A stretch of DNA of 64,000 nucleotides from Eledone cirrhosa (taxonomy: Eukaryota), in the NCBI GenBank assembly GCA_964016885.1, contig OZ024748.1, forward strand, positions 31,496,001 to 31,560,000. The letters run 5' to 3'. The translations under genes were made by a program, and so were the position numbers. The notes under the pieces are model-generated. The model was not told where the DNA came from and did no database searches. It was given only the letters and a program-made list of their open reading frames with translations. Below, in pieces: positions 5,385-64,000 of this stretch; positions within the stretch are counted from its first letter, which is position 1, and each line of letters starts with the position of its first letter.

Positions 5385-6720
5385 AATTATAATGAAATGA
5401 CAGGAGGCTGGATTTGTGTAAATCCTTGAAAGGTTTATTATACTATGATCATTTCAATGACCGGGTTCCGTATGAATCCGGTGATATCATCAGGTATTCG
5501 AAATATAATACGTGAATGTAATAGGTAAAATCCATGGGGCTGAAAATCGAGACCCGAGGGCGACCGCTATTCTGTTCCTTCACCCTCAGCCAGTCGCCCT
5601 GGAGTGACGTGGCTAAATTTTATAGTATGCTACTACCGGTCAGATGAACGAAAACAGAAAGGGATGGGAGCATAAGTTAACGTCGATCTCATGACACAAG
5701 GTAAAAGAAAGAAAGAAAGGAAGGAGAGAGAAGAAGGGGGAAGAAAGAAGAAGAGAAGCCAGGGTTAATGTCAGCTAAAAGAGGAAGGCAACTACTACTG
5801 GTCAGATATAGGCAAGCAAGAGGGGGAAGGAAGATAAGTCTGCGGGAGGAAGACAGGAGGAGGGGAGAAGAGAAGGAAGGGAAGAGAGAAGTAGAAAAGT
5901 AAGGGTTGATGGCTACAAGAAGGAAGATAGAAAGAAAGAGGGAGAAAGGTCGATATTAATGTCAGACCACAGTCAAGCCAGGAGTGGCGCGAGAAAATGT
6001 TCACAGGGACACGCATCTTAGCAGAGGTGAATATATTGGGAGTCAGTGTGTTACAGCGTTTAGACTTTTAGGATGAAGTTAAAAAAATTAATAATCAATA
6101 TTCAATATTAAAGAGGTTAGAAAATTTAAAGTTCAACAGTTTAACATTTAATTATATAATAGTTCCGATTTGTTCTGTAATTTAAAGGTACTATGTGGCG
6201 GTTAAAACACCGGCCGCGCCCCGGGCCCCATGGCGAACTAAGCCACGCCGAGTATGGGAGTTCAGTGTGAGTTATACATGCCCAGAAGTATAGGGTAGCC
6301 ATTTAGTTAATTCAGTGCAGTACAATACAGGTTATGGTCCAGTCCGTGGAGTTTCGTCAAAGTTCGGATATTCTGTGAGGGGAGTAGCAAAGGGCCAGGC
6401 GAAAGCACCGGGTAGCCAAAGTTCGAATTGTGGTTAGATATATTCAGTCCCATGCCGCTGTTGATTATTACATTTTGAAGTGCTCAACATTTCAGGAGCG
6501 TTATTTATTGGCTATAATCATAGTATAATAAACCTTTCAAGGATTTACACAAATCCAGCCTCCTGTCATTTCATTATAATATTTAACTCCGTAATAGCAC
6601 CACCAACTACAAAAACAAAGACGGTTGAACTGCTTTACGTTGAGTACTCTCTATATTATTGCATTACGATTGACCATACGGAATAGACCAGCTCTATACA
6701 GTGGTGAACCTCAAACCTGA
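5385..6720. mobile_element. Family C remnant: pseudo-LTR + purine-rich putative 3' UTR (minus) joined to an inverted pseudo-LTR piece (6517-6720, plus)
   Basis: Homology to 1660-2010; inverted arrangement typical of PLE insertions; no coding remnant seen. Confidence 0.6.
5440..5497 (-). ncRNA. Type I hammerhead ribozyme (family C, copy 2)
   Basis: Identical to 1851-1908. Confidence 0.75.
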
Positions 6721-6748
6721 ATATATAAATATATATATATATATGACA

Positions 6749-8580
<1,832 letters not shown>

Positions 8581-8977: not shown

Positions 8978-10018
<1,041 letters not shown>

Positions 10019-10026
10019 ATTTCATA

Positions 10027-14850: not shown

Positions 14851-15248
14851 TATATATATATATGTATATATATATGTATATATATATATATATATATAAA
14901 ACTACTTTTCATATGTTGATTTAAAACTGCACTATTCACAAGTGTGTTTTAACCTTCATATCATGTCTCCCTATTTTATCTGACGAAAACGCAAATGTTA
15001 TTGCATGATGATATTTGTTTTTAAAATGCGCATAATAAAATACATGGAACTCTTTTAACCATCTTTTGATCTTATATATTATTTATACTCCAGTCCTACA
15101 AACAGTAGAGTGCTACTTATCCGATATCTGCATTGCTTTATTGTACTACAATAAAACTCACCTCCTACATTAACTTGCTCTTTAACGGTTGAGCGCTAAC
15201 TCTCATATTGGATACCTTTTGATGGTCCTTTACCTTTTCTTCTACAAC

Positions 15249-17649
15249 ATGGATTATTACAACATAACCAATTCAACTAAAGACATTCCTATACCTGGTA
15301 AATCGGAATTCACCAAACTTCAAATTGAAAAAACTGACTCCTATGTAAGAAGGCTTAGATGGATAGCTTATTTCTATGACCAGCGCCTAAAAGGGAACTT
15401 CTATACTAAGGAACATAACTTCCTCGATCATCTATTTAATTCTAGAAGAAATCCTCCTTCCAACAAAAATCTAGTGCAATTCGAGGAGGAGTTAACTAAC
15501 ATTATAAAAAATCTTAAATTCAAGAGAAACCCTTACAGAGGACAGGAGCACCTTGTAAATCTCAAGAACACAATTTCAAACCTAAATTCCTCAAAAAATG
15601 TTTTAGTCCACTCTGACAAAACCAATAATTTATATGGTATTTCCAAGGATAACTATAACAGCCTTATCCTAAAGGAACTTATGAAAAAATATCGCAAAAC
15701 CAACCATGCTAATTTAGAATCCATAAACTTTGAAGCTTCTGAGATTATGTCGAAACTTGGCATCGGAAAAAAGACCGAACCATTCCTCCCAAGAACTCCG
15801 AGGATAAATCTCAAGGATCACAAAAACAATTTTCGTACTGAACTACCTGTTAGACTAATCTCCCCCTCTAAATCAGATCTGGGGGTTGTTAGCAAAGCCA
15901 TCTTGGATAGAAGTTCGTTCTAATTGCTCTTCTTTGAACTTAAATTTATGGTTTGGTACTTCTGAAGTGATTGGCTGGTTCAACAAATTGAATAAGAAAA
16001 ATAAACAAAAATGTATTCAATTTGATATTGACAGCTACTATTCTTCTATTTCGCCCTTACTTCTCAACAATGCTCTATCTTTCGCTTACAAATATTCAGA
16101 CATCACCACAGATGAAATTCACATCATTCTCACCGCACGTAAAACTATCCTAGAGTTCAACAATGAATATTGGACCAGAGTTGATACCTCTAACAACTTT
16201 GACATCACAATGGGAGCATCCGATTCATCCCAATTGACAGATTTAATTGGTATCTTTATTTTGAACTCTTTGAATCGGAAAATTCCTCAACTTCGCGGTG
16301 GAATTTATCGTGACGATGGACTCTTTACTATCTTAAATTGCAACATAGTTAACCTTAATATTATTAAGAACAATATACGTAATCTCTTTAACCAACATAA
16401 CTTAAAAATTGAATTTGATAACAGCATCAAACTAGCTAATTTCTTGGATGTATCTCTTAATCTTGACACTGGCCTATATTACCCTTACCATAAAAACAAT
16501 GAGAACCTAAATTATGTTAATTTTAAATCTAACCACCCTACCAATATTAAGAATGCTATAGTTAGTAATATTTGAAAAATAATATCTAACCTATCTTCTA
16601 ATAAAAACATCTTTTATGCTAACGCCAATTACTATAATAACGCGCTTTCTAAAGCTAGTTATCCTGATAAAATCAAATATAGTAAAGAAACAAATTCTAG
16701 AAGATCTTACAGTAGAATAATTAATCATGATCATTCCAATAACTTTAATAAAAGACCTAGATACAAAAACATAATCTGGTATAATGCTCCTTTCTCCATC
16801 TCTATTAATAATAATATTCCTAAATTATTCTTTAGTGCCTTAAATAAATGCTTCCCTCCCTCACATATCTATAGTAAAATATTTAACAAACACACTATAA
16901 AATTTTCCTATTCGACCTCCTCCAATATCTCCAACATTATCTCTAAACACAACAATAAAATACTAAATACTAAATCTCTTCCTTCCAACACTGAATATCA
17001 TAATAATAGTAATAGTACTCCCGACGTCATTGTAAACTCTAGGCTAATTTCTGCAAACCTAAATACAACGTCAAACGCAACTTCGCTAAATGTTCTTAAT
17101 CCCATTCTAAATCAAGAAACTATTATTCCTATCGTAAATAACTTCTCCAATCCTTCTATAGATCACTTGTTCACTTGTTCACTAGGTCACTTGTTAATAA
17201 CTCTGTTAATCTCTCTAATCGCAATTGCCCTGTTAAAAATAAATGTCCTCTCAACAACCATTGTCTTGAAAAAAAACTTAATCTACGAATGTAAAGTTAT
17301 AACTGACACCAATTCCTTTACCTATTTTGGCTCCACTTCCACCTCCTTTAAAGCTCGTCTTTATAATCATCATTCGTCTTTTAAATACCAACTTAAAAGA
17401 ACCAACACGGCACTCTCAGAACTCATATGGTTCTTGAAAGACAAAAATATTAACTATAACATCTCTTGGAAGAAGGTTTGTTCTGCTTCTCCATACTTGA
17501 ACAGTTCTCTCTCCAAGACATGCAATCTCTGTTTATGTGAACAATTTACCATTATATCTAATTTAGATTCTATAATAAATAGACGCACTGACTTGTTTTC
17601 TCTCTGCTTGCATAAATTCCACAGAACATTCCATAAAGTATACAGCTAA
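15249..17649 (+). pseudogene. Disrupted PLE RT/GIY-YIG ORF
   Basis: LKDHK, FDIDSYY, MGASDS, YRDDG, FLDV, IYEC..YFGST; frameshift ~15910, stop 16573-16575, further shifts ~17165-17275 relative to intact A2. Confidence 0.92.
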
Positions 17650-18678
17650 TATCTAATACTTTATCAATTTAAAATCGTTTTCTCAAAGGCACATATATAT
17701 ATATACATATATATTTCTTTAAAAATATACCCATCTTTCTACCTTATTTCAATGTTATTTATTATACATTATATAATACTAGTTACTCATTCTATATCAC
17801 TCCTATTTTCTCACTTCCCTTCTTTCTTTTTTCCTTTTTTCTTTTTCTTTTAATTTCTAACCCCTAATCTGTACCTTTTCTTCCTAGATACTTCTCAATT
17901 ATCATTGTGCCTAATGTAGAAACAATTATTACACAGCACAATATATTCTTACTTTATATCACCTTGAAAAAATCCTTCGTAAACATTAAAAATTTTTTAA
18001 ACAGTAAATATTTTTTAAACAGTAAAAATTTTTTAAACAGTAAAAATTTTTTGACATTAGATTATTCATCCTCAATTCATTATTTTTTTCTCCCTTTCAT
18101 GCTCATCTAACTTATACATATTACACTTATTCATCCAATCTTCTACTTCTTTCACAATATATCCTTACTTACATTACTATTGCTATATTTTTATATTTTT
18201 TTAATAATATATATCAACAATTTATTTCCATCCCACATATTATTACACCCTTAAATATTATTCTTAATACATATTAACAATTTCTTTTCATCGCACATAT
18301 TATTAAACCCTTAAATATACAAACCTTAACTTAACATTATTCTAAATTTTTCTCTTCGTTAATTTTCAAATTCTTTTAATTTATATATTATCTTCCAACG
18401 GTTTTTCAACCTCTCTATGTAAAACAATATATTTTTCTGTTATAAAGGCTATCTCTCTCTCTCTATCACCCGTCTCTCCTCCTATCTCATCCTTCCTCAT
18501 GATACTCCTCCCCCTCCACTTTTTACTCTCATCTCCTCCTCTTTTTCATCATCGCCCCGCCACCCTCAACATTTTTTGTCTCCCCCAATATCACACATCA
18601 ATCTAAAACTACTTTTCATATGTTGATTTAAAACTGCACTATTCACAAGTGTGTTTTAACCTTCATATCATGTCTCCC

Positions 18679-18749
18679 TATTTTATCTGACGAAAACACA
18701 AATGTTATTGCATGATGATATTTGTTTGTGAAATGCGCATAATAAAATA
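18679..18749 (+). ncRNA. Type I hammerhead ribozyme in PLE A pseudo-LTR (other copies 10381-10451 -, 14972-15042 +, 35426-35496 -, 39356-39426 -, 39818-39888 +)
   Basis: TATTTTAT-CTGACGA-[long helix II]-GAAA-TGCGCA-TA-ATAAAATA; 8-bp helix I, palindromic helix III. Confidence 0.85.
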
Positions 18750-18887
18750 CATGGAACTCTTTTAACCATCTTTTGAACTTATATATTATTTATACTCCAG
18801 TCCTACAAACTGTAGAGTGCTACTTATCCGATATCTGCTGCATTGCTTTATTGTCCTACAATAAAACTCACCTCCTACATATATATG

Positions 18888-19196: not shown

Positions 19197-21885
19197 GATT
19201 AAGTTAAAGTGTACATCTACATATGTATACGGAAGTATTAGTATGCATATAAATACACACATGTATACATATGTACATGTACTCAGCTTTTCACTAGACA
19301 CTTTACAGTGAGTGTCAGCTAGTCTGTATGTAACCATACAGGCGGACGGGGTTTTAGAGTCATACGAGTTTTCAAGGAAACACATTTCCTCTATTCTCCA
19401 GAGGGCCAGACAGGAATATTGGACTAGTTTCGATGTTATTACATCTCATCAGCAATATTTACCCATCTTCCGGCTTCTCTGGAGAATTGTAAAAGCACAT
19501 ATCGTTATATGCTTTTTCTATGAAAATTAGTAGTGGGTAGACTAATTTGCATAGAACGTGAGTCATTGTACGCACCGGTTCAGCGGAAACGATAAAAACA
19601 AATAACGAAACGAAATTAAATTTCGTTTCGCTTCTAACTCACTTTTGTATGACTGACGCTTAGACAATTAAGTTAAAGTGTACATCTACATATGCATACG
19701 GAAGTATTAGTATGCATATAAATACACACATGTATACATATGTACATGTACTCAGCTTTTCACTAGACACTTTACAGTGAGTGTCAGCTAGTCTGTATGT
19801 AACCGTACAGGCGGACCGGGTATTAGAGTCATACGAGTTTTCAAGGAAACACATTTCCTCTATTCTCCAGAGGGCCAGACAGGAATATTGGACTAGTTTC
19901 GATGTTATTACATCTCATCAGCAATATTTACCCATCTTCCGGCTTCTCTGGAGAATTGTAAAAGCACATATCGTTATATGCTTTTTCTATGAAAATTAGT
20001 AGTGGGTAGACTAATTTGCATAGAACGTGAGTCATTGTACGCACCGGTTCAGCGGAAACGATAAAAACAAATAACGAAACGAAATTAAATTTCGTTTCGC
20101 TTCTAACTCACTTTTGTATGACTGACGCTTAAACAATTAAGTTAAAGTGTACATCTACATATGTATACGGAAGTATTAGTATGCATATAAATACACACAT
20201 GTATACATATGTACATGTACTCAGCTTTTCACTAGACACTTTACAGTGAGTGTCAGCTAATCTGTATGTAACCATACAGGCGGACCGGGTTTTAGAGTCA
20301 TACGAGTTTTCAAGGAAACACATTTCCTCTATTCTCCAGAGGGCCAGACAGGAATATTGGACTAGTTTCGATGTTATTACATCTCATCAGCAATATTTAC
20401 CCATCTTCCGGCTTCTCTGGAGAATTGTAAAAGCACATATCGTTATATGCTTTTTCTATGAAAATTAGTAGTGGGTAGACTAATTTGCATAGAACGTGAG
20501 TCATTGTACGCACCGGTTCAGCGGAAACGATAAAAACAAATAACGAAACGAAATTAAATTTCGTTTCGCTTCTAACTCACTTTTGTATGACTGACGCTTA
20601 AACAATTAAGTTAAAGTGTACATCTACATATGCATACGGAAGTATTAGTATGCATATAAATACACACATGTATACATATGTACATGTACTCAGCTTTTCA
20701 CTAGACACTTTACAGTGAGTGTCAGCTAGTCTGTATGTAACCATACAGGCGGACCGGGTTTTAGAGTCATACGAGTTTTCAAGGAAACACATTTCCTCTA
20801 TTCTCCAGAGGGCCAGACAGGAATATTGGACTAGTTTCGATGTTATTACATCTCATCAGCAATATTTACCCATCTTCCGGCTTCTCTGGAGAATTGTAAA
20901 AGCACAGATCGTTATATGCTTTTTCTATGAAAATTAGTAGTGGGTAGACTAATTTGCATAGAACGTGAGTCATTGTACGCACCGGTTCAGCGGAAACGAT
21001 AAAAACAAATAACGAAACGAAATTAAATTTCGTTTCGCTTCTAACTCACTTTTGTATGACTGAAGCCGGAAGATGGGTAAATATTGCTGATGAGATGTAA
21101 TAACATCGAAACTAGTCCAATATACCTGTCTGGCCCTCTGGAGAATAGAGGAAATGTGTTTCCTTGAAAACTCGTATGACTCTAAAACCCGGTCCGCCTG
21201 TATGGTTACATACAGACTAGCTGACACTCACTGTAAAGTGTCTAGTGAAAAGCTGAGTACATGTACATATGTATACATGTGTGTATTTATATGCATACTA
21301 ATACTTCCGTATACATATGTAGATGTACACTTTAACTTAATTGTTTAAGCGTCAGTCATACAAAAGTGAGTTAGAAGCGAAACGAAATTTAATTTCGTTT
21401 CGTTATTTGTTTTTATCGTTTCCGCTGAACCGGTGCGTACAATGACTCACGTTCTATGCAAATTAGTCTACCCACTACTAATTTTCATAGAAAAAGCATA
21501 TAACGATATGTGCTTTTACAATTCTCCAGAGAAGCTGGAAGATGGGTAAATATTGCTGATGAGATGTAATAACATCGAAACTAGTCCAATATTCCTGTCT
21601 GGCCCTCTGGAGAATAGAGGAAATGTGTTTCCTTGAAAACTCGTATCACTCTAAAACCCGGTCCGCCTGTATGGTTACATACAGACTAGCTGACACTCAC
21701 TGTAAAGTGTCTAGTGAAAAGCTGAGTACATGTACATATGTATACATGTGTGTATTTATATGCATACTAATACTTCCGTATACATATGTAGATGTACACT
21801 TTAACTTAATTGTTTAAGCGTCAGTCATACAAAAGTGAGTTAGAAGCGAAACGAAATTTAATTTCGTTTCGTTATTTGTTTTTAT
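19197..21885. repeat. Family E: 469-bp tandem repeat with one hammerhead per unit (4 units, then ~1.75 inverted units)
   Basis: Exact 469 period; inversion at ~21063; hammerheads at 19415, 19884, 20353, 20822 (-) and 21080, 21549 (+). Confidence 0.95.
21549..21593 (+). ncRNA. Canonical minimal type I hammerhead ribozyme (family E representative)
   Basis: AATATTG-CTGATGA-GATGT(AATA)ACATC-GAAA-CTAG-TC-CAATATT; perfect helices I and II, GUC triplet. Confidence 0.93.
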
Positions 21886-22255: not shown

Positions 22256-24811
<2,556 letters not shown>

Positions 24812-24838
24812 GTATATATATATGTATATATATATAAG

Positions 24839-24891
<53 letters not shown>

Positions 24892-24896
24892 GTATA

Positions 24897-24940
<44 letters not shown>

Positions 24941-25218
24941 GGCTGCTCAGCCGTTAATTTTCATAAGGAAAGTATATACTTTCGAACGTTCAACTATCTG
25001 GCAGATGGGTAAACGGTGCTGATGATAGCTAACAAGCTTGAAACTAGTACATCGTTCCTGTGTCAGTGTTGAACAAAAAGGTGACGTGGTTGCCTTAACA
25101 CCGTATGGCATAAATTCAGGCTGTTCGCTTTGTTGACAAACAAACGAACAAAGCGGCCGGCGTTATAATAAACGTAGGCTAAACTGATGCGTGCATATAT
25201 GTATGTATACCTGTATGC

Positions 25219-25292
<74 letters not shown>

Positions 25293-25753
25293 ATATATAT
25301 ATATATGTGCATGCTACTGTACGTCTGTATACATATATGTATGTACGTATACATACATACTTACATTTAAGTAAGTGCCATACTAAGAGTGAGAAATGAA
25401 ATTTCGTTTTCATTTTTTTTCAACTAATCGTTTTCGGTATGCCTGACCGATTTAACTCACTCAATATGCAAATTAGGCTGCTCAGCCGTTAATTTTCATA
25501 AGGAAAGTATATACTTTCGAACGTTCAACTATCTGGCAGATGGGTAAACGGTGCTGATGATAGCTAACAAGCTTGAAACTAGTACATCGTTCCTGTGTCA
25601 GTGTTGAACAAAAAGGTGACGTGGTTGCCTTAACACCGTATGGCATAAATTCAGGCTGTTCGCTTTGTTGACAAACAAACGAACAAAGCGGCCGGCGTTA
25701 TAATAAACGTAGGCTAAACTGATGCGTGCATATATTTATGTGTACATGTATGC

Positions 25754-25825
<72 letters not shown>

Positions 25826-26272
25826 GTGCATGCTACTGTACGTCTGTATACATATATGTATGTACGTATACATACATACTTACATTTAAGTAAGTGCCAT
25901 ACTAAGAGTGAGAAATGAAATTTCGTTTTCATTTTTTTTCAACTAATCGTTTTCGGTATGCCTGACCGATTTAACTCACTCAATATGCAAATTAGGCTGC
26001 TCAGCCGTTAATTTTCATAAGGAAAGTATATACTTTCGAACGTTCAACTATCTGGCAGATGGGTAAACGGTGCTGATGATAGCTAACAAGCTTGAAACTA
26101 GTACATCGTTCCTGTGTCAGTGTTGAACAAAAAGGTGACGTGGTTGCCTTAACACCGTATGGCATAAATTCAGGCTGTTCGCTTTGTTGACAAACAAACG
26201 AACAAAGCGGCCGGCGTTATAATAAACGTAGGCTAAACTGATGCGTGCATATATGTATGTGTACCTGTATGC

Positions 26273-26312
<40 letters not shown>

Positions 26313-26774
26313 ATATATATATATATGTGCATGCTACTGTACGTCTGTATACATATATGTATGTACGTATACATACATACTTACATTTAAGTAAGTGCCA
26401 TACTAAGAGTGAGAAATGAAATTTCGTTTTCATTTTTTTTTCAACTAATCGTTTTCGGTATGCCTGACCGATTTAACTCACTCAATATGCAAATTAGGCT
26501 GCTCAGCCGTTAATTTTCATAAGGAAAGTATATACTTTCGAACGTTCAACTATCTGGCAGATGGGTAAACGGTGCTGATGATAGCTAACAAGCTTGAAAC
26601 TAGTACATCGTTCCTGTGTCAGTGTTGAACAAAAAGGTGATGTGGTTGCCTTAACACCGTATGGCATAAATTCAGGCTGTTCGCTTTGTTGACAAACAAA
26701 CGAACAAAGCGGCCGGCGTTATAATAAACGTATTCTAAACTGATGCGTGCATATATGTATGTGTACCTGTATGC

Positions 26775-26873
<99 letters not shown>

Positions 26874-27318
26874 CATGCTACTGTACGTCTGTATACATAT
26901 ATGTATGTACGTATACATACATACTTACATTTAAGTAAGTGCCATACTAAGAGTGAGAAATGAAATTTCGTTTTCATTTTTTTTTCAACTAATCGTTTTC
27001 GGTATGCCTGACCGATTTAACTCACTCAATATGCAAATTAGGCTGCTCAGCCGTTAATTTTCATAAGGAAAGTATATACTTTCGAACGTTCAACTATCTG
27101 GCAGATGGGTAAACGGTGCTGATGATAGCTAACAAGCTTGAAACTAGTACATCGTTCCTGTGTCAGTGTTGAACAAAAAGGTGACGTGGTTGCCTTAACA
27201 CCGTATGGCATAAATTCAGGCTGTTCGCTTTGTTGACAAACAAACGAACAAAGCGGCCGGCGTTATAATAAAAGTAGGCTAAACTGATGCGTGCATATAT
27301 GTATGTGTACCTGTATGC

Positions 27319-27360
<42 letters not shown>

Positions 27361-27432
27361 ATATATATATATATATGTGCATGCTACTGTACGTCTGTAT
27401 ACATATATGTATGTACGTATACATACATACTT
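24941..27432 (+). repeat. Family D tandem array, ~5 units of 502-544 bp, each with a hammerhead and an internal (TA)n
   Basis: Hammerheads start at 25012, 25547, 26066, 26568, 27112; length variation is almost all in the internal TA tract. Confidence 0.95.
25547..25591 (+). ncRNA. Minimal type I hammerhead ribozyme (family D representative)
   Basis: AACGGTG-CTGATGA-tAGCT(AACA)AGCTt-GAAA-CTAG-TA-CATCGTT; 7-bp helix I with one G.U, GUA triplet. Confidence 0.88.
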
Positions 27433-27449
27433 ATATATATATATATATC

Positions 27450-33099: not shown

Positions 33100-33148
33100 A
33101 GTATGTATGTATACGTACATACATATATGTATACAGACGTACAGTAGC

Positions 33149-33185
<37 letters not shown>

Positions 33186-33517
33186 CAGGCACACATATAT
33201 ACATGTACGTATCAATTTAGCCAATATTTATTATAACATTCGCTTTGTTCGTTTGTAAACAAACGGACAGCCTGATTTATGCCGTACGGTGTTAAGGCAA
33301 CCACGTCACTTTTTTGTTCAACACTGACACAGGAACAATGTACTAGTTTCAAGCTTGTTAGCTATCGTCAGCACCGTATACCCTTCTGCCAGATGGTTGA
33401 ACGTTCGAAAGTAAGTATATACTTTCCATATGAAAATTCACGGCTGAGCAAACGAACAAAGCGAATGTTATAATAAATATTCGCTAAACTGATACGTACA
33501 TGTATATATGTGTGCTG

Positions 33518-33611
<94 letters not shown>

Positions 33612-33937
33612 CATGCTATTGTACGTCTGTATACATATATGTATGTACGTACATGCATACTTACATTTAAGTAAGTGCCGTACTAAGAGTGAGAAATGAA
33701 ATTTCGTTTCATTCTATTCCAACTTATCGTTTTCGGTGCGCCTGGCCGACTGAACTCACTCGATATGCAAATTAGGCTGCTCAGCCGTTAATTTTCATAA
33801 GGAAAGTATATACTTTCGATCGTTCAACCATCTGGCAGAAGGGTATACGCTGCCGACGATAGCTAACAAGCTTGAAACTAGTACATCGTTCCTGTGTCAG
33901 TGTTGAACAAAAAGGTGACGTGGTTGCCTTAACACCG

Positions 33938-33981
<44 letters not shown>

Positions 33982-34090
33982 CATGCTACTGTACGTCTAT
34001 ACATATATGTATGTACGTATACATACATACTTACATTTAAGTAAGTGCCGTACTAAGAGTGAGAAATGAAATTTCGTTTCATTCTATTCC
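33100..34090. repeat. Diverged family D units, divergent orientation
   Basis: Hammerhead with CTGACGA at 33334-33378 (-); core-mutated CCGACGA copy at 33846-33890 (+); inversion ~33450. Confidence 0.85.
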
Positions 34091-34171
<81 letters not shown>

Positions 34172-35291: not shown

Positions 35292-36516
35292 ATGTAGGAG
35301 GTGAGTTTTATTGTAGTACAATAAAGCAATGCAGATATCGGATAAGAAGCACTCTACAGTTTGTGGGACTGGAGTATGCATAATATAAGATCAAAAGATC
35401 AAAAGATGGTTAAAGGAGTTCAATATATTTTATTATGCGCATTTCAAAAACAAACATCATCAAACAATAACATTTGTGTTTTCATCAGATAAAACAGGAG
35501 AACATGATATGAAGGCTAAAAAAACACTTGTTGATAGTGCAGTTTTAAATCAACATATGAAAAGTGGTTTTAGATTGATGTGTGATATTGGGAAAAATAT
35601 TTTATTTAGAGAGGGGGGGAGAGAAAAGGATGAAAAGGGAAGGAGATGAGAGGGAGAGATGGGTGATAGAGAGAAAGAGATAGTTTTTATAACAGAGAGG
35701 AGATATATTTTATATAGAGGGGTTGAAAACCGTTGGAAGATACTGTATAAATTAAAAATTTTGAAAATTAACGAAGGGAGGATATGTGCGAGGAAAAAAT
35801 ATATTATATTTAGGGAGGGGTGGGGGTGGAAAGGATGAAAAAAAGGGGAGGAGATGAGAGTGAAGGTGGAAAGGGAGAGATGGGTGATAGAGAGAAAGAG
35901 ATAGTTTTTATAACTGAGAAAAAGATATAATGTTTTAATATAGAGAGGTTGGGAACCGTTGGAAGATAATGTATAAATTAAAGGAATTTGAAAATTAACG
36001 AAGGGAAATTATGTATGGAGATAGAGAGAAAAAAATAACGAAGGGAGATTATGTATGGAGATAGAGAGAAAAAAATAATAATTGTGGGTGAATATTCAAA
36101 AGGAGAAATGTAGGAATCTTAAAATTAGCAAAGAGAAAATGTTTATGTATAGGATTTGAGAAAAATAATGTGAAGTTAAAGTTTTTATATTGAATTCATA
36201 TGTATTAATAATGAGTTCGTTGATGGGGAGAAAAAAATAATAATAAATTAAGGATGAAATTGAGATTAAAAAGATTTATGATAGAGAGAAAAAATAATAA
36301 TGATTGCGGATGAATACTCAAAATGTCAAAAACAAATGTTATTGTTTTACGAAGAGATATAATGAGGGTGATGAGTAAACGGGTATTATAGAGTGTATAA
36401 TGCCCTTTAAAGTAAGGTAGATGGGTATATTTTAAAGAATATATGAGTATATATTAAAAAATATATAATAATAAATTAAGGATGAAATTGAGATTAAAAA
36501 GATTTATGATAGAGGG

Positions 36517-36551
<35 letters not shown>

Positions 36552-39500
36552 ATAATGATTGCGGATGAATATTCAAAAAGTCAAAAACAAATGTTATTGT
36601 TTTACGAGAAGATAGGATGAGGTAAATGAATAAACGAGTACTATAGAGTGTATAATGCCCTTTAAAGTAAGGTAGATGGGTATATTTTAAAGAGGTGTAT
36701 GTATATGTGCCTTTGAGAAAAGATTCTAAATTGATAAAGAATTGAATATTAACTGTATACTTTGTGAAAAGTTCTATGGAATTTATGCAGGCAGATGGAA
36801 AACAAATCCGAGCGTCTATTTATTATGGATTCTAGGTTAGAGATAATGGTAAATTTTTCATTTAGGCAGAGATTACAGATTTTAGATAGAGAACTGTTCA
36901 AGTACGAGGATGCAGAAGAAATCTTTTTCCAAAAGATGTTATATTTAATGTTTTTGTCTTTTAAGGACCATATGAGTTCTGAGAGAGCAGTGTTAGTTCT
37001 TTTAAGTTTGTATTTGAAAGATGAATGATGATTATAGAGACGAGCTTTAAAAGAGGTGGAAGTGGAGCCAAAATAGGTGAAGGAGTTGGTGCTAGTTATA
37101 ATTTTACATTCATAAATTAAGTTTTTATCGAGGCAATGGTTGTTGAGAGGACATTTATTTTTAATGCGGCAGTTGCAATTAGAGAGATTATTAATGAGTG
37201 ATCTAGTGTTATCTATAGAAGGAATTGGATTGGAGAAGTTGTTTGCGATAGGAATAATAGGAATAATAGTTTCTTGATTTAGAGTTGGATTATGAACATT
37301 TAGCGAAGTTGTGTTTGACGTTGCATTTGGGTTTACAGAAGTTAGCCTAGGGTTTACAATGACGTCGGGAGTACTATTATTGTTATTATGAGATTCAATA
37401 TTGGAAGGAAGAGATTTAGTATTTAATATTTTGTTGTTGTGTTTAGAAATGATGTTGGAAATATTGGAGGATGTAGAATACGAAAATTTAATGGTGTGTT
37501 TGTTAAATATTTTACTATAGATATGTGAGGGAGGGAAGCATTTATTTAAGGCACTAAAAAATAATTTAGGAATATTGTTATTAATAGAGATGGAGAAAGG
37601 AGCATTATACCAGATTATGTTTTTGTATCTAGGTCTTTTATTAAAATTATTGGAATGGTTATGATTAAATATTCTACTGTAAGTTTTCCTAGAATTTGTT
37701 TCTTTATTATATTTGATTTTATCTGGATAGCCAGCTTTAGAAAGTGCGTTATTATAGTAATTGGCGTTAGCATAAAAGATGTTTTTATTAGAAGATATGT
37801 TAGATATTCTATTTCCAATATTATTAACTATAGCATTCTTGATATTGGTAGGATGGTTAGATTTAAAGTTAACATAATTAAGATTCTCATTGTTTTTATG
37901 GTAAGGGTAATATAGGCCAGTGTCAAGATTAAGAGATACATCCAAGAAATTAGCTAGTTTGGTACTATTATCAAATTCAATTTTTAGGTTATGTTGGTTA
38001 AAGAGATTACGTATATTGTTCTTAATAATATTAAGTTTAACTATATTGCAATTTAGGATAGTAAAGAGTCCATCGTCACGATAAATTCCACCGCGAAGTT
38101 GAGGAATTTTCCGACTCAAAGAGTTCAAAATGAAGATACCAATTAAATCAGTCAGTTGGGATGAATCGGATGCTCCCATTGTGATGTCGAAGTTGTTAGA
38201 GGTATCGGCTCTGGTCCAATATTCGTTGTTGAACTCTAGGATGGTTTTACGTGCGGTGAGGATGATGTGAAGTTCATCTGTGGTGATGTCAGAATATTTA
38301 AGTGCGAAAGATAGAGCATTATTGAGAAGTGAAGGCGAAATGGAGGAATAGTAGCTGGCAATATCGAATTGAATAAATTTTAGTTTGTTTTTATTATCCA
38401 ATTTGTTGAACCAGCCAATCACTTCAGAAGTACCAAACCATAAATTTAGGTTTAAAGAAGAGCAATTAGAACTAACCTGTGGGATAATCCTATCCAAGAT
38501 GGCTTTACTAACAACCCCCAGATCAGATTTAGAGGGGGCGATTAATCTAACAGGTAGTTCAGTGCGAAAATTGTTTTTGTGATCCTTGAGATTTATCCTC
38601 GGAGTTCTTGGGAGGAATGGTTCGGTCTTTTTTTCAATGCCAAGTTTTGACATAATCTCATAGGCTTCAAGGTTTATGCATTCTAAATTTTCATGGTTGG
38701 TTTTACGATACTTTTTCCTAAGTTCCTTTAGGATAAGGTTGTTATAATTATCCTTGGAAATACCATATAGGTTATTGGTTTTGTCAGAGTGGACTAAAAC
38801 ATTTTTTGAGGAATTTAGGTTAGAGATTGTGTTCTTGAGATTTACAAGGTGCTCTTGTCCTTTGTAAGGGTATCTCTTGAATTTAAGATTTTTTATAATT
38901 TTAGTTAATTCTTCCTCGAATTGTGCTAGATTTTTGTTGGAAGGAGGATTTCGTCTGGAATTAAAAAGATGATCGAGGAAGTTGTGTTCTTTGGTATGAA
39001 AGTTCCCTTTTAGGCGCTGGTCATAGAAATAGGCTGTCCATCTAAGTCTTCTTACGAAGGAGTCAGTTTTTTCAATAAGAAGTTTGGTGAATTCAGATTT
39101 ACCAGGTATAGGAATGTCTTTAGTAGAATTGGTTATGTTGTAATAATCCATGTTGTAGAAGAAGAGGTGAAGGACCATCAAAAGGTATCCAATATGAGAG
39201 TAAGCGCTCAACCGTTAAGGAGCAAGTAAATGTAGGAGGTGAGTTTTATTGTAGTACAATAAAGCAATGCAGATATCGGATAAGAAGCACTCTACAGTTT
39301 GTGGGACTGGAGTATGCATAATATAAGATCAAAAGATGGTTAAAGGAGTTCAATATATTTTATTATGCGCATTTCAAAAACAAACATCATCAAACAATAA
39401 CATTTGTGTTTTCATCAGATAAAACAGGAGAACATGATATGAAGGCTAAAAAAAACACTTGTTGATAGTGCAGTTTTAAATCAACATATGAAAAGTGGTT

Positions 39501-39923
39501 TTAGATTGATGTGTGATATTGGGAAAAATATTTTATTTAGAGAGGGGGGGAAAATTTTTTAATTTATACAGTATCTTCCAACGGTTTTCAACCCCTCTAT
39601 ATAAAATATATCTCCTCTCTGTTATAAAAACTATCTCTTTCTCTCTATCACCCATCTCTCCCTCTCATCTCCTTCCCTTTTCATCCTTTTCTCTCCCCCC
39701 CTCTCTAAATAAAATATTTTTCCCAATATCACACATCAATCTAAAAACACTTGTTGATAGTTGATTTAAAACTGCACTATCAACAAGTGTTTTTTTAACC
39801 TTCATATCATGTTCTCCTGTTTTATCTGATGAAAACACAAATGTTATTGTTTGATGATGTTTGTTTTTGAAATGCGCATGATAAAATATATTGAACTCCT
39901 TTAACCATCTTTTGATCTTATAT

Positions 39924-39927
<4 letters not shown>
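35292..39927 (-). mobile_element. Full-length PLE A2 with direct pseudo-LTRs and an inverted 5' pseudo-LTR
   Basis: Direct repeats ~35292-35620 and ~39231-39550; inverted copy ~39551-39927; three hammerheads; TA at both ends. Confidence 0.95.
36749..39151 (-). CDS. Intact PLE reverse transcriptase / GIY-YIG endonuclease (~800 aa from MDYYN), Hydra-clade-like
   Basis: Uninterrupted ORF: SDKTNN, LKDHK, FDIASYY, MGASDS, YRDDG, FLDV, WYNAPF, CNC-x5-CP, IYEC-x9-YFGST, CNLC..E, CLH. Confidence 0.93.
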   Translation of the reverse strand: MDYYNITNSTKDIPIPGKSEFTKLLIEKTDSFVRRLRWTAYFYDQRLKGNFHTKEHNFLDHLFNSRRNPPSNKNLAQFEEELTKIIKNLKFKRYPYKGQEHLVNLKNTISNLNSSKNVLVHSDKTNNLYGISKDNYNNLILKELRKKYRKTNHENLECINLEAYEIMSKLGIEKKTEPFLPRTPRINLKDHKNNFRTELPVRLIAPSKSDLGVVSKAILDRIIPQVSSNCSSLNLNLWFGTSEVIGWFNKLDNKNKLKFIQFDIASYYSSISPSLLNNALSFALKYSDITTDELHIILTARKTILEFNNEYWTRADTSNNFDITMGASDSSQLTDLIGIFILNSLSRKIPQLRGGIYRDDGLFTILNCNIVKLNIIKNNIRNLFNQHNLKIEFDNSTKLANFLDVSLNLDTGLYYPYHKNNENLNYVNFKSNHPTNIKNAIVNNIGNRISNISSNKNIFYANANYYNNALSKAGYPDKIKYNKETNSRKTYSRIFNHNHSNNFNKRPRYKNIIWYNAPFSISINNNIPKLFFSALNKCFPPSHIYSKIFNKHTIKFSYSTSSNISNIISKHNNKILNTKSLPSNIESHNNNNSTPDVIVNPRLTSVNPNATSNTTSLNVHNPTLNQETIIPIIPIANNFSNPIPSIDNTRSLINNLSNCNCRIKNKCPLNNHCLDKNLIYECKIITSTNSFTYFGSTSTSFKARLYNHHSSFKYKLKRTNTALSELIWSLKDKNIKYNIFWKKISSASSYLNSSLSKICNLCLNEKFTIISNLESIINRRSDLFSICLHKFHRTFHKVYS

Positions 39928-40018
<91 letters not shown>

Positions 40019-40031
40019 GTGTGTGTGTGTA

Positions 40032-41824
40032 TATAAAGGTGATGCATTAGATAGAGGAAATTATAGAGGTATGAAGTTGATGGACCAGGTCATGAAAGTA
40101 ACAGAAAGAGTTATAGCACAGTTGATTAGGGACCGGGTGAAAATAGACGAGATGCAATTTGGGTTTGTACCAGGAAGAGGCACCACTGATGCCCTCTTCC
40201 TTGTGAGGCAATTACAGGAAAAGTACCTAGCTAAAAGTAAGCCACTCTACTTGGCATTTGTCGACCTTGAGAAAGCCTTTGACAGAGTTCCACGTGCTGT
40301 AATCTGGTGGGCTCTTAGAAAACTAGGAGTAGATGAATGGCTTGTGAAAGCGGTCCAAGCCATGTATAGGGGAGCAGTCAGCAAAGTTAGGATTAGCAAT
40401 GAGTATAGCGATGAATTTAGCGTACAGGTTGGGGTCCACCAGGGCTCTGTTCTTAGCCCCCTCCTGTTCATCATAGTCCTGCAGGCAATAACGGAGGAGT
40501 TTAAGATCGGATGCCCATGGGAACTCCTGTATGCTGATGACCTCGCACTCATAGCTGAATCTATGGTAGAACTAGAGAATAAATTCCAACCTTGGAAGCA
40601 GGGACTAGAAAGAAAGGGTCTCAAAGTCAACATGACAAAGACTAAGGTCCTTGTAAGTAGACGAGAAAACAGAACCCAGATCCCCTCAGGGAAATGGCCT
40701 TGCTCAGTATGTAGGAAAGGTGTAGGTAGGAACTCCATTCTCTGCCCCAAATGCAAACAATGGGTACACAAGAGATGTAGCGGGATCTCAGGAAGCCTAC
40801 ATTTTTAATTAAGCTTCTCAGGAAGCTTAATTAAGAATGTAGGATTCACATGCAGCAGCTGTGCTGAAACAGCAAGCAAACAGCCACAGGAAACAAGTAC
40901 CACCAATCTCTGGGAGGGCTCTGTAGAAACAGTAGACAGCTTCTGCTACCTAGGTGACCGAATTAGCAGCGGAGGTGGGTGTTCAGAAAGTACAATAACT
41001 AGGGTAAGATCAGGATGGAAGAAGTTTAGGGAACTACTACCACTGCTAGCTGCAAAAGGCTTCTCCCTCAGAATGAAAGGCAGACTGTATGATGCGTGTA
41101 TCCGAACAGCAATGTTGCATGGTAGTGAGACCTGGGCGCTGAAGGTGGAAGACTTATGTAGATTAGAGAGAAACGAAGCCTGCATGCTCCGATGGATGTG
41201 TAACAGTAATATACGTGAACAACAAAGCATAAATGAATTGAGAGAGAGACTGAGCATAAGAGGAATCAAATGCTGTGTGCAGGAGAGGCGGTTGCGCTGG
41301 TATGGACATGTGATGCGTATGAAGGATGACGGCTGCATAAAAAGGTGCAGAGCACTAGAAGTTGATGGAAACCGCAGAGTGGGGAGACCCAAGATGACCT
41401 GGGATGAGGTGATAAAAGCCGACCTTACCCAATTACACCTCTCAAAGGCAATGACACACGACCCTGACTTCTGGCGTCACGCAGTAATACAGAGTGCCCG
41501 AACTTCCATGGGTACAAGCTGAAGCATATAGACAATATGCCCCCACACCCCCCGCCGCAAGGTGGTCGTGGAGGTGCCACGGCAAAAAAGCACCCAGCCC
41601 ACACTGTAAAGTGGACGTGTAGGCACCACGAAAAAGCACCCAGCACTAACTGTAAATGAGGTTGGTGTTAGGAAGGGCATCCAGCTGTAGAAATCAAGCC
41701 AGATCAGTTCCTGTATGAGCAAGGCATGGTCAGCCGACCAGACACTGCCCACAACAGGACAACCCGTCTAACGCATGCTAGCATGGAAGAACGGACGTAA
41801 AACTGTGATGATGATGATGATGAT
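40032..41824 (+). mobile_element. 5'-truncated RTE-type LINE with (GAT)n tail
   Basis: NYRGMKL, QFGFVPGRGTTDA, FVDLEKAFDRV, GVHQGSVLSP, YADDL, Cys-rich insert WPCSVC, MLHGSETW, LRWYGHV, GRPK; GATGATGAT at 41807-41824. Confidence 0.92.
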
Positions 41825-42155: not shown

Positions 42156-45100
42156 TATTTCGTTTCTGAATTTGTTTAGCAAGATTCTTTATCTGAAATC
42201 GTGTGTTGAAACCGATATTGTTATACTTTGGGAGGGTCATGTTGCCAATAAGAAACACACGCACCAGCTGCTTTCATTTAAATTTATTATAATAAATTTA
42301 TAAATTTAGGAATTTATAAATTTCTGGTTGGTTGGTTGGTTCCACAACCAGATAGTTGTTTATATATTGTCAACATCACTACTTACAATTAAGGACAAAT
42401 TGAAAACACACACACACATAGAACAAACAACCAACCGGTAACATGTAAATAAACAAATAAATAAACGAATATAAAGACACACAGACACCCGGATGCGGCG
42501 CATGCGCACACTGAGCACACAACACACACACAGAAACAAAATGGCGTAGGATAGAACAAAGGAGAGGCACAAAAACAAAGAAAAGAATCCCCAGTCACTG
42601 AAGAGGTCACAGAATGTGTGACGAAAGAACTTTGACAATATATAAACAACTATCTGGTTGTGGAACCAACCAACCAACCAGAAATTTATAAATTTATAAA
42701 TTCCTAAATTTATTATAATAAATTGAAATGAATGCAACTGGTGCGTGTGTTTCTTATTGGCAACATGACCCTCCCAAAGTATAACAATATCGGTTTCAGC
42801 ACACGATTTCAGATAAAGAATCTTGCTAAACAAATTCAGAAACGAAATATCGTAAGCCTTAGCCAGGCTAACAAGATATTGAAAACCACCATGTTCTGTT
42901 GTCTACGAAAAACCATAACATCTCGACAACTACACTTCATAAAAGAATGTGCCTCGTCCCGAGTTTACACCAACACCATCAACACCGACGTAAGAAGATT
43001 ACAACTCACCAAAAAACAAGCAGATAGGCTAAAACGAACACTAATTCTAAACATAAAAAAGAAGATCTATAGAGAATTAAGTGATCAAGAAAAACATAAG
43101 CGTAACCTAATACAAGAAATAACTAGTATCACCATACCAAGAGAGAAACTAATATTTATAAGCCTTATACGTCCTGAAGAACAGTACATTGCTCAAGAAT
43201 ATGATTAGCACTTTAACAAAAAACTAAAAAGTGTCTTAAGCAGATAAAACTAAAACTAAATCAGGATACTGTAGAGAATACCAATAGATATCCCGACAAA
43301 ATTGACGGTATAAATATGGCCGACACCTCATTAACAGATGAGTTCAACAACAACAACAACACAAATATATACGGCAACACGGCAATAGACCCTGATGAAT
43401 TATCTGTATTACTTCTACCACCGAAATGTGCGACATTCAAGAATGTAAATATGATTAGTTGTCTGTCAGAAATAGAAAAATCATTTACAAAATTACGTTG
43501 GAGCCTCAAAAACAAAAACAAAAACAAAAGTAACAACATACGTACACACATATACAACACACATCCCAACAACAACAGACACACAGACACAAACAACAAT
43601 AACAACAACACACACACCAACAATAATATCATACTCAGAAACAACAACAACAGACACGCAGACACAAACAACAATAACAACACACACAACAATAATAACA
43701 CACACGGAGACAACAACAACAACAACACACATCAACAACAGCACACATCAACAACAACAACACACACACATTCAATGCTTCTCACCACCACAACAATCTT
43801 AACAAACACACAGACACAGAAAACAAGTAATGACAGTAGCACAGAAATCACAGAAATAAGGGAAAGTAATAGGATTAAAAGGAGAAGGGAGACTATGGAC
43901 AAAGAAAATAACCAAGACGAACCCACAGACACACAAAATAGAGTAGATAATAACAATGAGCCAGTGGAAAGAGACAAGAGTAATTATGAGAGACATAGAA
44001 ACAACCATGAGGCTGTTGGTTGAAATAGAAATAGAAACAACACAACTAACAATAACAATAGCACTAGTACACATAAAGCAGCAGCCTGGAACTCTACTTT
44101 TTATAATCCCTCCGATAAGTCGTTCGACCTGCGACGAGTCCACGCTACGACTTTACCATTTAACAAACGCACGCAATTGCCGTCGCAGGTCGATGAACAA
44201 ACAGAAGCACAATTTAGTATAGCTAAATCCGAACTTAGAAATATTATAGAACAGTATAGCAAGAAGCATAATAGAATGGAGGCCCAGCAACTGGGAGAAA
44301 AATCTGCAAATGGCTTGCGTAAGCTCATGCAGCGCTCGCGTAATGGAGAGATAGCATGCTTTCCAACAGACAAGTCTGGCAGAATGTCGGTTGACAGCCT
44401 GCCAAACTACATCCAGGCAATGCAACCCCACATCACTAACACAAGAGAGGTAACACCGCAGGAGCATGAGGATAGAGAAAAAGCCCTCAATGCCCATATG
44501 GTGATGTGGACGAATATAATGCAGCCCAACAAAAGGACTGCCAACAACTTCCAGACCTGGAACAATGACGTGCCGGCGTTGTATGGGCTTCAAAAAGACC
44601 ATAAAACGGGCAGTGACCCTGTCACCGGACCACCAACAAGACCAGTCTGTGGAGCTAACATTGCTAGTAACTACAGACTGTCCTACTTCCTCTCCCTGAT
44701 CATACGCCCCATCATTGAAATGTTCCCAGATGTATGTGACAGCACGGAGGACCTCCTCAGCAGAATCGACGAGAGTAACCGATCTAGGGACCTAACAAAC
44801 TGTATAATAGGTAGTATGGATGTTGTGTCCCTGTATCCATCTATTGACGTGGATTTTGCTGTGGAGAAATGCGTAGAAATGATCAGTGAGAGCAATGTTG
44901 AGTTCCGTGGGATTGATACCAGTGAGCTGGGACTCCTACTTAAACTTACCTATAGTAATAATTACCTAGACACATATGACCTTAGCAACCTGTGCCCTAC
45001 AAGACCAGCAAGAGGCAGACCACCTACCATTACCTCAATGGCCAAGAAAACCCACACAGATAGATGGAACGGGTGGACCAGAGCCAAACGGACACCCGAA

Positions 45101-55488: not shown

Positions 55489-56139
55489 CAATATATTTAG
55501 AAACACACAGATACATGCGGACACACACATATACATGAATGCATCCGCACCCAACCGTGAGTTAAGGGTGCCAACTTCATCGATGTTGCTCAATGAATGA
55601 TTGGGACAGACCAATCCGGTTAAACTAGACTGAACCAGTATCAGAGTTAAAATACATTATGAAGAGAGAAGAAACATTTAGATATAATTAGTAATAAAAT
55701 GTATCATACCTAAACTGCTCCTAGATTCCTCGACTACGTAGTTTCGTGGCATAAACAAAAACAATACATCATAAAGATATAGAGTCCTTGCGAGGTCTGC
55801 CGACTTATCAAGAGGATACCTCATTTTAATAGTCTCAAGAACGCGTCTACACGACGTGAGAAAGAATCCCAAAAGGCGGAGGGGGAGATAGTCACGCGAT
55901 ATAACGGTCGAGAAACAGAGCTAAGCCTCTTATAACCCCGAAGAAAATACCACGGAGGCGGAGGGGGTATTTATATCGCAGCCGTAGAAGAGGTGGTGAA
56001 GGGGGCGAGAAGTATGAGTAATGGAAGCTTTCCAGCAGTCCCCACACTTCAAAGATTGCTCGACCAGAGGGAGTTATTAACAATATATTTAGAAACACAC
56101 AGATATGTGTGTTTCTAAATATATTGTAAAAATATATTC

Positions 56140-58901: not shown

Positions 58902-59076
58902 GTAATAACATCGAAACTAGTCCAATATTCCAGAATAGAGGAAATGTGTTTCCTTGAAAACTCGTATGACTCTAAAACCCGGTCCGCCTGTATGGTTACA
59001 TACAGACTAGCTGACACTCACTGTAAAGTGTCTAGTGAAAAGCTGAGTACATGTACATATGTATACATGTGTGTAT
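58902..59076 (+). repeat. Family E fragment starting inside the hammerhead
   Basis: TGTAATAACATCGAAACTAGTCCAATATTCC... matches ~21565-21755 with a short deletion. Confidence 0.9.
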
Positions 59077-59085
59077 TATTTCTAT

Positions 59086-64000
<4,915 letters not shown>

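Follow-up and report, generated by a model that had tools for sequence, protein, structure and literature searches.

The octamer-containing inverted pair shared by the related repeat families D and E is best explained, if tentatively, as an RNA hairpin within the module from which reverse transcription starts in a non-autonomous retrozyme of Penelope type, where it would be bound by the reverse transcriptase (RT). The motif itself is a real feature and exists as described at the sequence level. In the window, by which we mean the whole 64,000-nt stretch of Eledone cirrhosa DNA analyzed here, the octamer ATGCAAAT is located at 25466-25473 in D and at 21456-21463 in E, within inverted pairs that extend from 25465 to 25500 and from 21455 to 21489, respectively. 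It is present in all 13 window copies of D and E that span the left arm, once per copy, and is separated from the CTGATGA core of the hammerhead by 80 nt in D and by 92 nt in E, in line with the original prediction of an octamer and an inverted pair conserved in both families 80-95 nt upstream of the ribozyme. The window holds 15 octamers (D has 8, E has 5, and a LINE-type coding region contains the other 2) versus a shuffle mean of 5.9; this enrichment was rejected as a signal, because the copies are recent duplicates of two families and the excess thus reflects repeat copy number.

By sequence criteria, D and E would classify as homologous non-LTR retrozymes. Consecutive tandem units of both families carry a complete type I hammerhead with a minimal palindromic helix III; the units are non-coding, lack LTRs, and have monomer lengths of a few hundred nucleotides (519 and 469); and insertions of both families, placed in (TA)n, are of partial-tandem and inverted form and carry a terminal tail on one side, the pattern of Penelope mobilization. 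Four E units occupy the minus strand at 19198-21066, joined by the inverted partial tandem at 21062-21885, and further partial-tandem/inverted D insertions are found at 6844-8493 and 33100-34094; D also carries an internal TA tract. Hammerhead cores are located at 25019, 25554, 26073, 26575, and 27119 in D, and at 19452, 19921, 20390, and 20859 (minus strand) as well as 21087 and 21556 (plus strand) in E, with hammerhead helices I and II covarying between the two families. At the Rfam gathering score, no match was obtained in the window, the D and E hammerheads scoring below this threshold. The longest stop-free frame across the motif comprises 78 codons, a translated search returned three weak unrelated matches, and no tRNA was detected. 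Both families fit the working definition of non-LTR retrozymes given by Li, Clavereau & Pollet 2026 (bioRxiv 10.64898/2026.07.22.740005) and match the metazoan retrozymes of Cervera & de la Pena 2020 (PMC7229834). In metagenome contigs, a hammerhead-anchored scan gave 97 loci, with a single 36-nt match (E value 0.003) as the only alignment to D or E; of 13 among these loci chosen as resembling hammerheads more closely, one had the octamer, located downstream. Nothing resembling D or E was seen at the loci from a motif scan of viral contigs (8 loci) or a helix-I scan of prokaryote genomes (3 loci). Several metagenome loci (L004, L010, L018, L021, L039, L051, L054, L059, L070, and L077) carry hammerhead-like motifs and share with D/E an ACTAGT helix III, being unrelated to them in other respects.

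Table 1. Features of the D and E families and of the Neptune-type element in window coordinates.
Feature	Position	Strand	Evidence or details
Family D tandem array between (TA)n tracts	24941..27433	+	monomer 25585-26103, 519 nt
Small hairpin P0 with proximal D 3' end (~25363)	25360..25375	+	insertion ends
Helices around D start sites	25376..25460	+	folds, D/E helix register
Distal 3' end of D insertions, TAT/CG	25426..25430	+	ends 8494 (+), 4425 (-)
Left arm of D hairpin, contains octamer	25465..25476	+	no variant of at least 5% in run X1
Upper stem and loop of D hairpin, diverged versus E	25477..25489	+	folding, comparison with E
Right arm of D hairpin	25490..25500	+	varies at 25494, 25496 (X1), 25490 (one window copy)
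Type I hammerhead, D	25548..25590	+	core 25554-25560, 25575-25578; predicted cleavage after 25584
Family E, four tandem 469-nt units and inverted partial tandem, between (TA)n	19198..21885	.	repeats
E tail region	21336..21418	+	proximal end near 21341, distal TAT/CG 21414-21418
Homologous E hairpin	21453..21491	+	arms 21455-21466, 21479-21489; z -6.66
Type I hammerhead, E	21550..21592	+	predicted cleavage after 21586
5' region, Neptune-type Penelope-like element	42740..42900	+	3' end sites 42790, 42850, both TAT/CG

On their 3' side, D and E insertions pass into (TA)n at either of two sites, which are homologous between the families (Table 1). At the distal D site, a third insertion end (34094) falls ~7 nt earlier, and position 25426 is an A in this window copy and a T in 99% of X1 depth. 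Proximal D ends lie near 7726, 7754 (minus strand), 27432, and ~33100 (minus strand), the D tail being 25363-25428; E insertions end at 19198 (minus strand) at the proximal and at 21885 at the distal site (21416). Tail length is 65-76 nt in D/E, and the TAT of the junction overlaps the target repeat (TA)n. We infer that the distal TAT/CG site of D is where reverse transcription starts. The paired 3' ends that define a tail in both families are a Penelope signature. For the Poseidon element of Anolis, RT has been reported to start at two internal sites defining a tail (+111 to +118) and to need RNA to +172, which is ~55-60 nt past the start (PMC11167929). Measured from the distal site in the 3' direction, the hairpin begins at 37 nt in D and at 39 nt in E and extends to ~+73, a near-fixed position relative to the presumed RT start in these two families; from hairpin start to ribozyme core, the distance is 89 nt in D and 101 nt in E, a difference of 12 nt.

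The TAT/CG junction of D and E (25428, 21416) is common to the Neptune-type element (42790, 42850; 60 nt apart) and is the one similarity seen between it and D/E, while the ends of the Hydra-type element in the window differ from it. Judged from its sequence, this common junction points to a mobilizer of Neptune type as a candidate partner. A hairpin like that of D/E was not found 3' of the Neptune-type start sites, the motif hairpin was not seen in the three terminal-repeat families folded besides D/E, and a D/E profile search of the window gave no match outside the D/E copies, hence no partner with the signal.

The window as a whole consists of nested retroelements in (TA)n tracts, with D and E residing among Penelope-like elements. 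One of these has an uninterrupted 821-codon (821-aa) Hydra-type frame (36749-39214, minus strand) with DKT and CxCX5C features, both of which are given for Hydra-clade Penelope-like elements by Craig 2021 (PMC8557442). Its best named match, at 38%, is an Argonauta hians protein annotated as GATA zinc-finger-like, which is probably a mis-annotated transposon. The second Penelope-like family has a CX4CxxC linker, and its Neptune type is assigned from this linker motif only; among named relatives, the best come from Octopus vulgaris (top match at 65% identity) and Argonauta hians, which makes an octopod host probable. At least three further hammerhead-bearing terminal-repeat families are present (14899-18880, 35294-39928, 1660-2010, 5385-6729, 42484-42846), their hammerheads featuring the palindrome TGCGCA (Hydra type), TGATCA (another family), or a non-palindromic minimal core (Neptune type). 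Two tandem/inverted repeat families in (TA)n lie at 169-1432 and 9121-10020, where a strict pattern found no hammerhead core. A ~1.1-kb higher-order tandem (60355-64000 and 24107-25194) combines three parts: a piece of a Neptune-type pseudo-LTR, which has a minimal hammerhead of its own; a TA tract; and a D unit that is truncated at the 5' end and lacks the left arm. Because the four TA tracts have interruptions in common, this tandem represents one event that was duplicated. A very AT-rich nested satellite with periods of 166, 285, and 453 and with inverted blocks (56113-58870) is followed by a 5'-truncated E fragment (58901-59077). An RTE-type frame (40032-40805) had its best match, at 83% identity, in P0026, which is labelled a bacterial MAG protein and is probably animal DNA in a bacterial MAG bin.

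The hairpin is predicted in linear and circular folds of both units, and in circular monomers of both families nine of the ten motif pairs form with a probability of at least 0.86. Compared with shuffles, the hairpin has z scores of -2.4 (D) and -6.7 (E), and entire units fold with z -4.9 and -10.1, respectively. Each family lengthens the stem by complementary bases of its own, in E by two basal and two apical pairs. Predicted circle energies (sense versus antisense) were -182 versus -139 kcal/mol for D and -155 versus -137 kcal/mol for E. The motif hairpin is folded by the minus strand as well as by the plus strand, so the stem alone does not tell which strand matters. Around the D start sites, the folds include a long-range helix P1, whose 5' strand within 25376-25460 pairs with 25638-25645, helix P2 (25389-25393 pairing with 25456-25460), a tail hairpin (25394-25415), and a small hairpin after TAT/CG.

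D and E are homologous throughout, with 63-65% identity over aligned columns versus 55% for shuffles processed with the same aligner. Their longest identical runs are the two arms of the motif (12 and 11 nt), the blocks of the hammerhead core measuring 9 and 9 nt; for two such runs, the permutation p is 0.011 with gap columns and 0.15 without them. Another 11-nt identical run, AGATGGGTAAA, located in the helix I bulge region (25538-25548 and 21540-21550), is probably a ribozyme tertiary-contact element. Ten homologous D/E helices, the motif included, were registered by hand; the small hairpin directly after TAT/CG was not registrable between the families and was excluded from helix counts. In the nine non-motif helices, all 55 pairs form in both families, 36 of them unchanged, 19 changed, and none broken, which bears out the earlier observation that stems neighboring the motif covary. 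In the motif stem, all 10 pairs are unchanged versus the 36 of 55 in the other helices (Fisher p = 0.023, uncorrected and post hoc for one of ten helices). P2 (5/5 pairs) and the tail hairpin (7/8) are largely unchanged too, and with the motif excluded the helices around the start sites retain 22 of 26 pairs unchanged, those toward the ribozyme 14 of 29 (p = 0.005, for a grouping chosen post hoc). The hairpin loop has diverged and altered its length between D and E, with both arms kept. On the basis of the two families compared, conservation of the motif would seem to exceed chance to a moderate extent.

Variation within D was assessed with public sequencing contigs aligned to this family, from four of 24 listed runs, namely X1 (n = 5767), X19 (n = 6), X20 (n = 2, unlike D), and X23 (no reads). 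In X1, the 5% level is reached by 22 variant rows, which fall on 21 of the 396 positions, with depth not equaling copy number and with X1 possibly stemming from another species than the window. Neither the octamer and left arm nor the loop has a variant at or above this level, as is the case for 375 of the 396 positions overall. Two right-arm variants, 25494 T>A and 25496 T>G, account for ~54% of summed depth each (105 and 101 contigs), and these equal depth shares lead us to infer that the two are linked on one molecule. Combined, they close the C.U mismatch and open an A.A mismatch two pairs further up, changing the predicted hairpin energy from -8.9 to -11.9 kcal/mol; with 25494 alone it would be -5.6 kcal/mol. 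The mismatch had originally been considered conserved along with the arms. The C.U is indeed common to D and E, but its role as part of the signal is weakened, since the X1 variants shift the mismatch. Among the eight other window copies compared, one alters 25490, one (the 7k copy) alters 25476, and none alters the octamer. The simplest description of these sequences would be a left arm that is fixed in sequence and a stem pairing that carries the right arm along.

A protein or RT recognition stem was one of the readings offered in the original prediction, and it fits best with the circular folds, the extended stems, and the 37/39-nt spacing, the mismatch as part of the signal having lost ground. 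Array transcripts of the retrozyme class self-cleave and are then ligated into circles. Here, the D or E array would be transcribed, cut by its hammerheads, and circularized as in other retrozymes. A Penelope-like RT-endonuclease would bind the conserved domain around and 3' of TAT/CG in trans, nick (TA)n, and prime with TAT microhomology at the internal site, and by rolling round the template the RT would produce tandem copies. The hairpin, lying 3' of the start, would not be the first part to be copied, and its role would be to contribute to the binding site. The left arm would be fixed in sequence and the right arm would follow by pairing, and we propose that the lack of covariation in the motif stem may be due to this; the octamer match would then be incidental. 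In favor of the RT module, the family-specific extra pairs and the X1 double variant both reinforce the stem. Against it stands that the mismatch, a natural recognition point, appears to move in X1, and that no partner element with the hairpin was found in the window. Furthermore, pairing by itself needs no fixed sequence, and sequence within an RNA helix is hard to read.

The fixed left arm could instead reflect a dual use, the left arm acting as a POU/Oct site through which Pol II transcription of the array is activated, though not necessarily in the snRNA manner, and the right arm pairing in the RNA, an alternative that we consider unlikely though worth keeping in view. Every change observed either lies in the right arm or leaves the octamer untouched, an asymmetry that suits a DNA site in the left arm, and the exact octamer is retained in 13 of 13 covering copies. 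Had the word been named beforehand, the probability of meeting the octamer among the 20 8-mers common to D and E would be ~0.001; however, it was picked post hoc among many known motifs in AT-rich DNA, and an exact octamer arises in 5% of D+E shuffles. Its invariance in X1 is not distinctive either, given that 375 of 396 positions lack a variant of at least 5%, and none of the eight stretches checked in other families, whether terminal repeats or other repeats, contains the octamer. Penelope tissue-specific regulatory sequences have been reported to include the tail and the ORF start (PMC2377424), and newt satellite 2 to have an internal promoter (PMC2220036), both of which would be compatible with a dual use. 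The sense strands of both units contain T-runs of 4-8, which would favor Pol II over Pol III. A Pol III internal promoter was rejected, as there is no tRNA, no sense B-box-like word, and several T-runs; a promoter combining octamer and TATA was rejected as well, the TATA-like word, 42 nt downstream, occurring only in D, which also speaks against a dual use. An AP-1-like word before the E octamer was likewise rejected, since it turned out to form the 3' strand of helix P2 and is not the same in D. Newt satellite 2 reportedly has an snRNA-type promoter that involves an octamer, as Coats, Zhang, and Epstein are said to have found in 1994. The original prediction envisaged that each unit carries its own promoter element. 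A newt-like version of this, with the octamer as the distal element and a proximal sequence element in each D/E unit, fared poorly, so that we regard it as very improbable. A hammerhead-bearing satellite offers a precedent (cited in PMC2220036), and the octamer in the 13 of 13 covering copies would represent the putative distal element. The conserved blocks, however, are helix strands or the insertion end, leaving no candidate for a proximal element; the block ~150 nt downstream forms a hairpin in which 4 of 8 pairs have changed, and the octamer is absent from the eight other stretches. In addition, the distal element of sea urchin U6 is described as an E-box, not an octamer (10.1101/2023.01.09.523328), and mollusc U6 promoters with an octamer were not found in our literature search.

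It is also conceivable, if rather unlikely, that the motif is a member of the set of ten conserved helices, its unchanged sequence being residual identity with no sequence-specific role. The p of 0.15 for the two runs in ungapped columns, the p of 0.023 uncorrected for ten helices, the likewise unchanged pairs of P2 (5/5) and the tail hairpin (7/8), and the variation of the right arm in X1 would all agree with such a purely structural role. This is difficult to reconcile with the longest D/E identical runs (12, 11 nt), which exceed the core blocks (9, 9), and with arms that stayed unchanged next to a loop that diverged and changed its length. If the octamer match is due to chance, the motif would be an ordinary stem of a known repeat class. 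Very little credence is given to a signal at the DNA level, be it for the endonuclease or as a cruciform promoting local tandem growth and truncation. Two independent D 5' ends lie inside the hairpin (24941 and 33450, corresponding to ~25475 and ~25480), both strands fold the hairpin, and the Penelope endonuclease of D. virilis needs tail DNA (as reported in PMC11167929). Yet two of about nine independent 5' ends are not clearly above chance, the four copies starting here share one TA pattern and represent a single event, and integration sites are (TA)n rather than the motif. Finally, a dual-coded element that unites a POU site in the left-arm DNA of each unit with an RNA hairpin bound by a Neptune-type RT 3' of TAT/CG is, in our estimate, improbable. 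If true, an invertebrate retrozyme would carry promoter and mobilization signal in one 36-nt element, and would have reached a POU site independently of newt satellite 2.

Returning to the RT-bound hairpin as the preferred reading, the retrozyme class and its Penelope link are already published, and going by the sequence the hairpin and tail sites of D/E are a candidate RT signal. In the literature searched, which comprised few subscription papers and did not extend to Repbase, octopod retrozymes, the motif hairpin, and mapped retrozyme tail sites are undescribed; the word 'octopus' is absent from the main text of PMC7229834, and the extended left-arm word had no match in the supplement of PMC8557442, where line breaks could hide matches. 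D and E resemble the metazoan non-LTR retrozymes described in PMC7229834 and by Li 2026 in their non-coding tandem units of low GC with a type I hammerhead each, in their highly self-paired monomers, in co-occurring with Penelope-like elements, and in lengths within the reported 51-972 bp. Unlike what the accounts in these papers describe, D and E show two 3' end sites with an adjoining conserved hairpin, reside in a probably octopod host, and include an internal TA tract in D. Features shared with Penelope pseudo-LTRs (Frangieh 2024, PMC11167929; Craig 2021, PMC8557442) are the partial-tandem/inverted insertions, the (TA)n targets, a hammerhead upstream of two 3' end sites, and conserved RNA 3' of the start. 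As distinct from these, D and E have no ORF, a tail of 65-76 nt instead of the 30-40 nt reported, and a non-coding hairpin 3' of the start in place of the 5' part of an ORF; a homologous autonomous element for D/E was not found in the window. Newt satellite 2 (PMC2220036) is likewise a hammerhead tandem repeat with an octamer in the unit and a minimal palindromic helix III, whereas D and E occur in an invertebrate, yielded no proximal element, and have the octamer as an arm of a conserved RNA stem. The Discussions of PMC7229834 and Li 2026 leave open how retrozymes are transcribed and which signal directs RT copying. To this, D and E contribute two mapped start sites, a junction that also occurs in a Neptune-type element, and a conserved RNA domain of compact size. 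They provide a defined substrate for an existing in vitro assay, and the same mutants could separate the promoter from the RT-signal reading.
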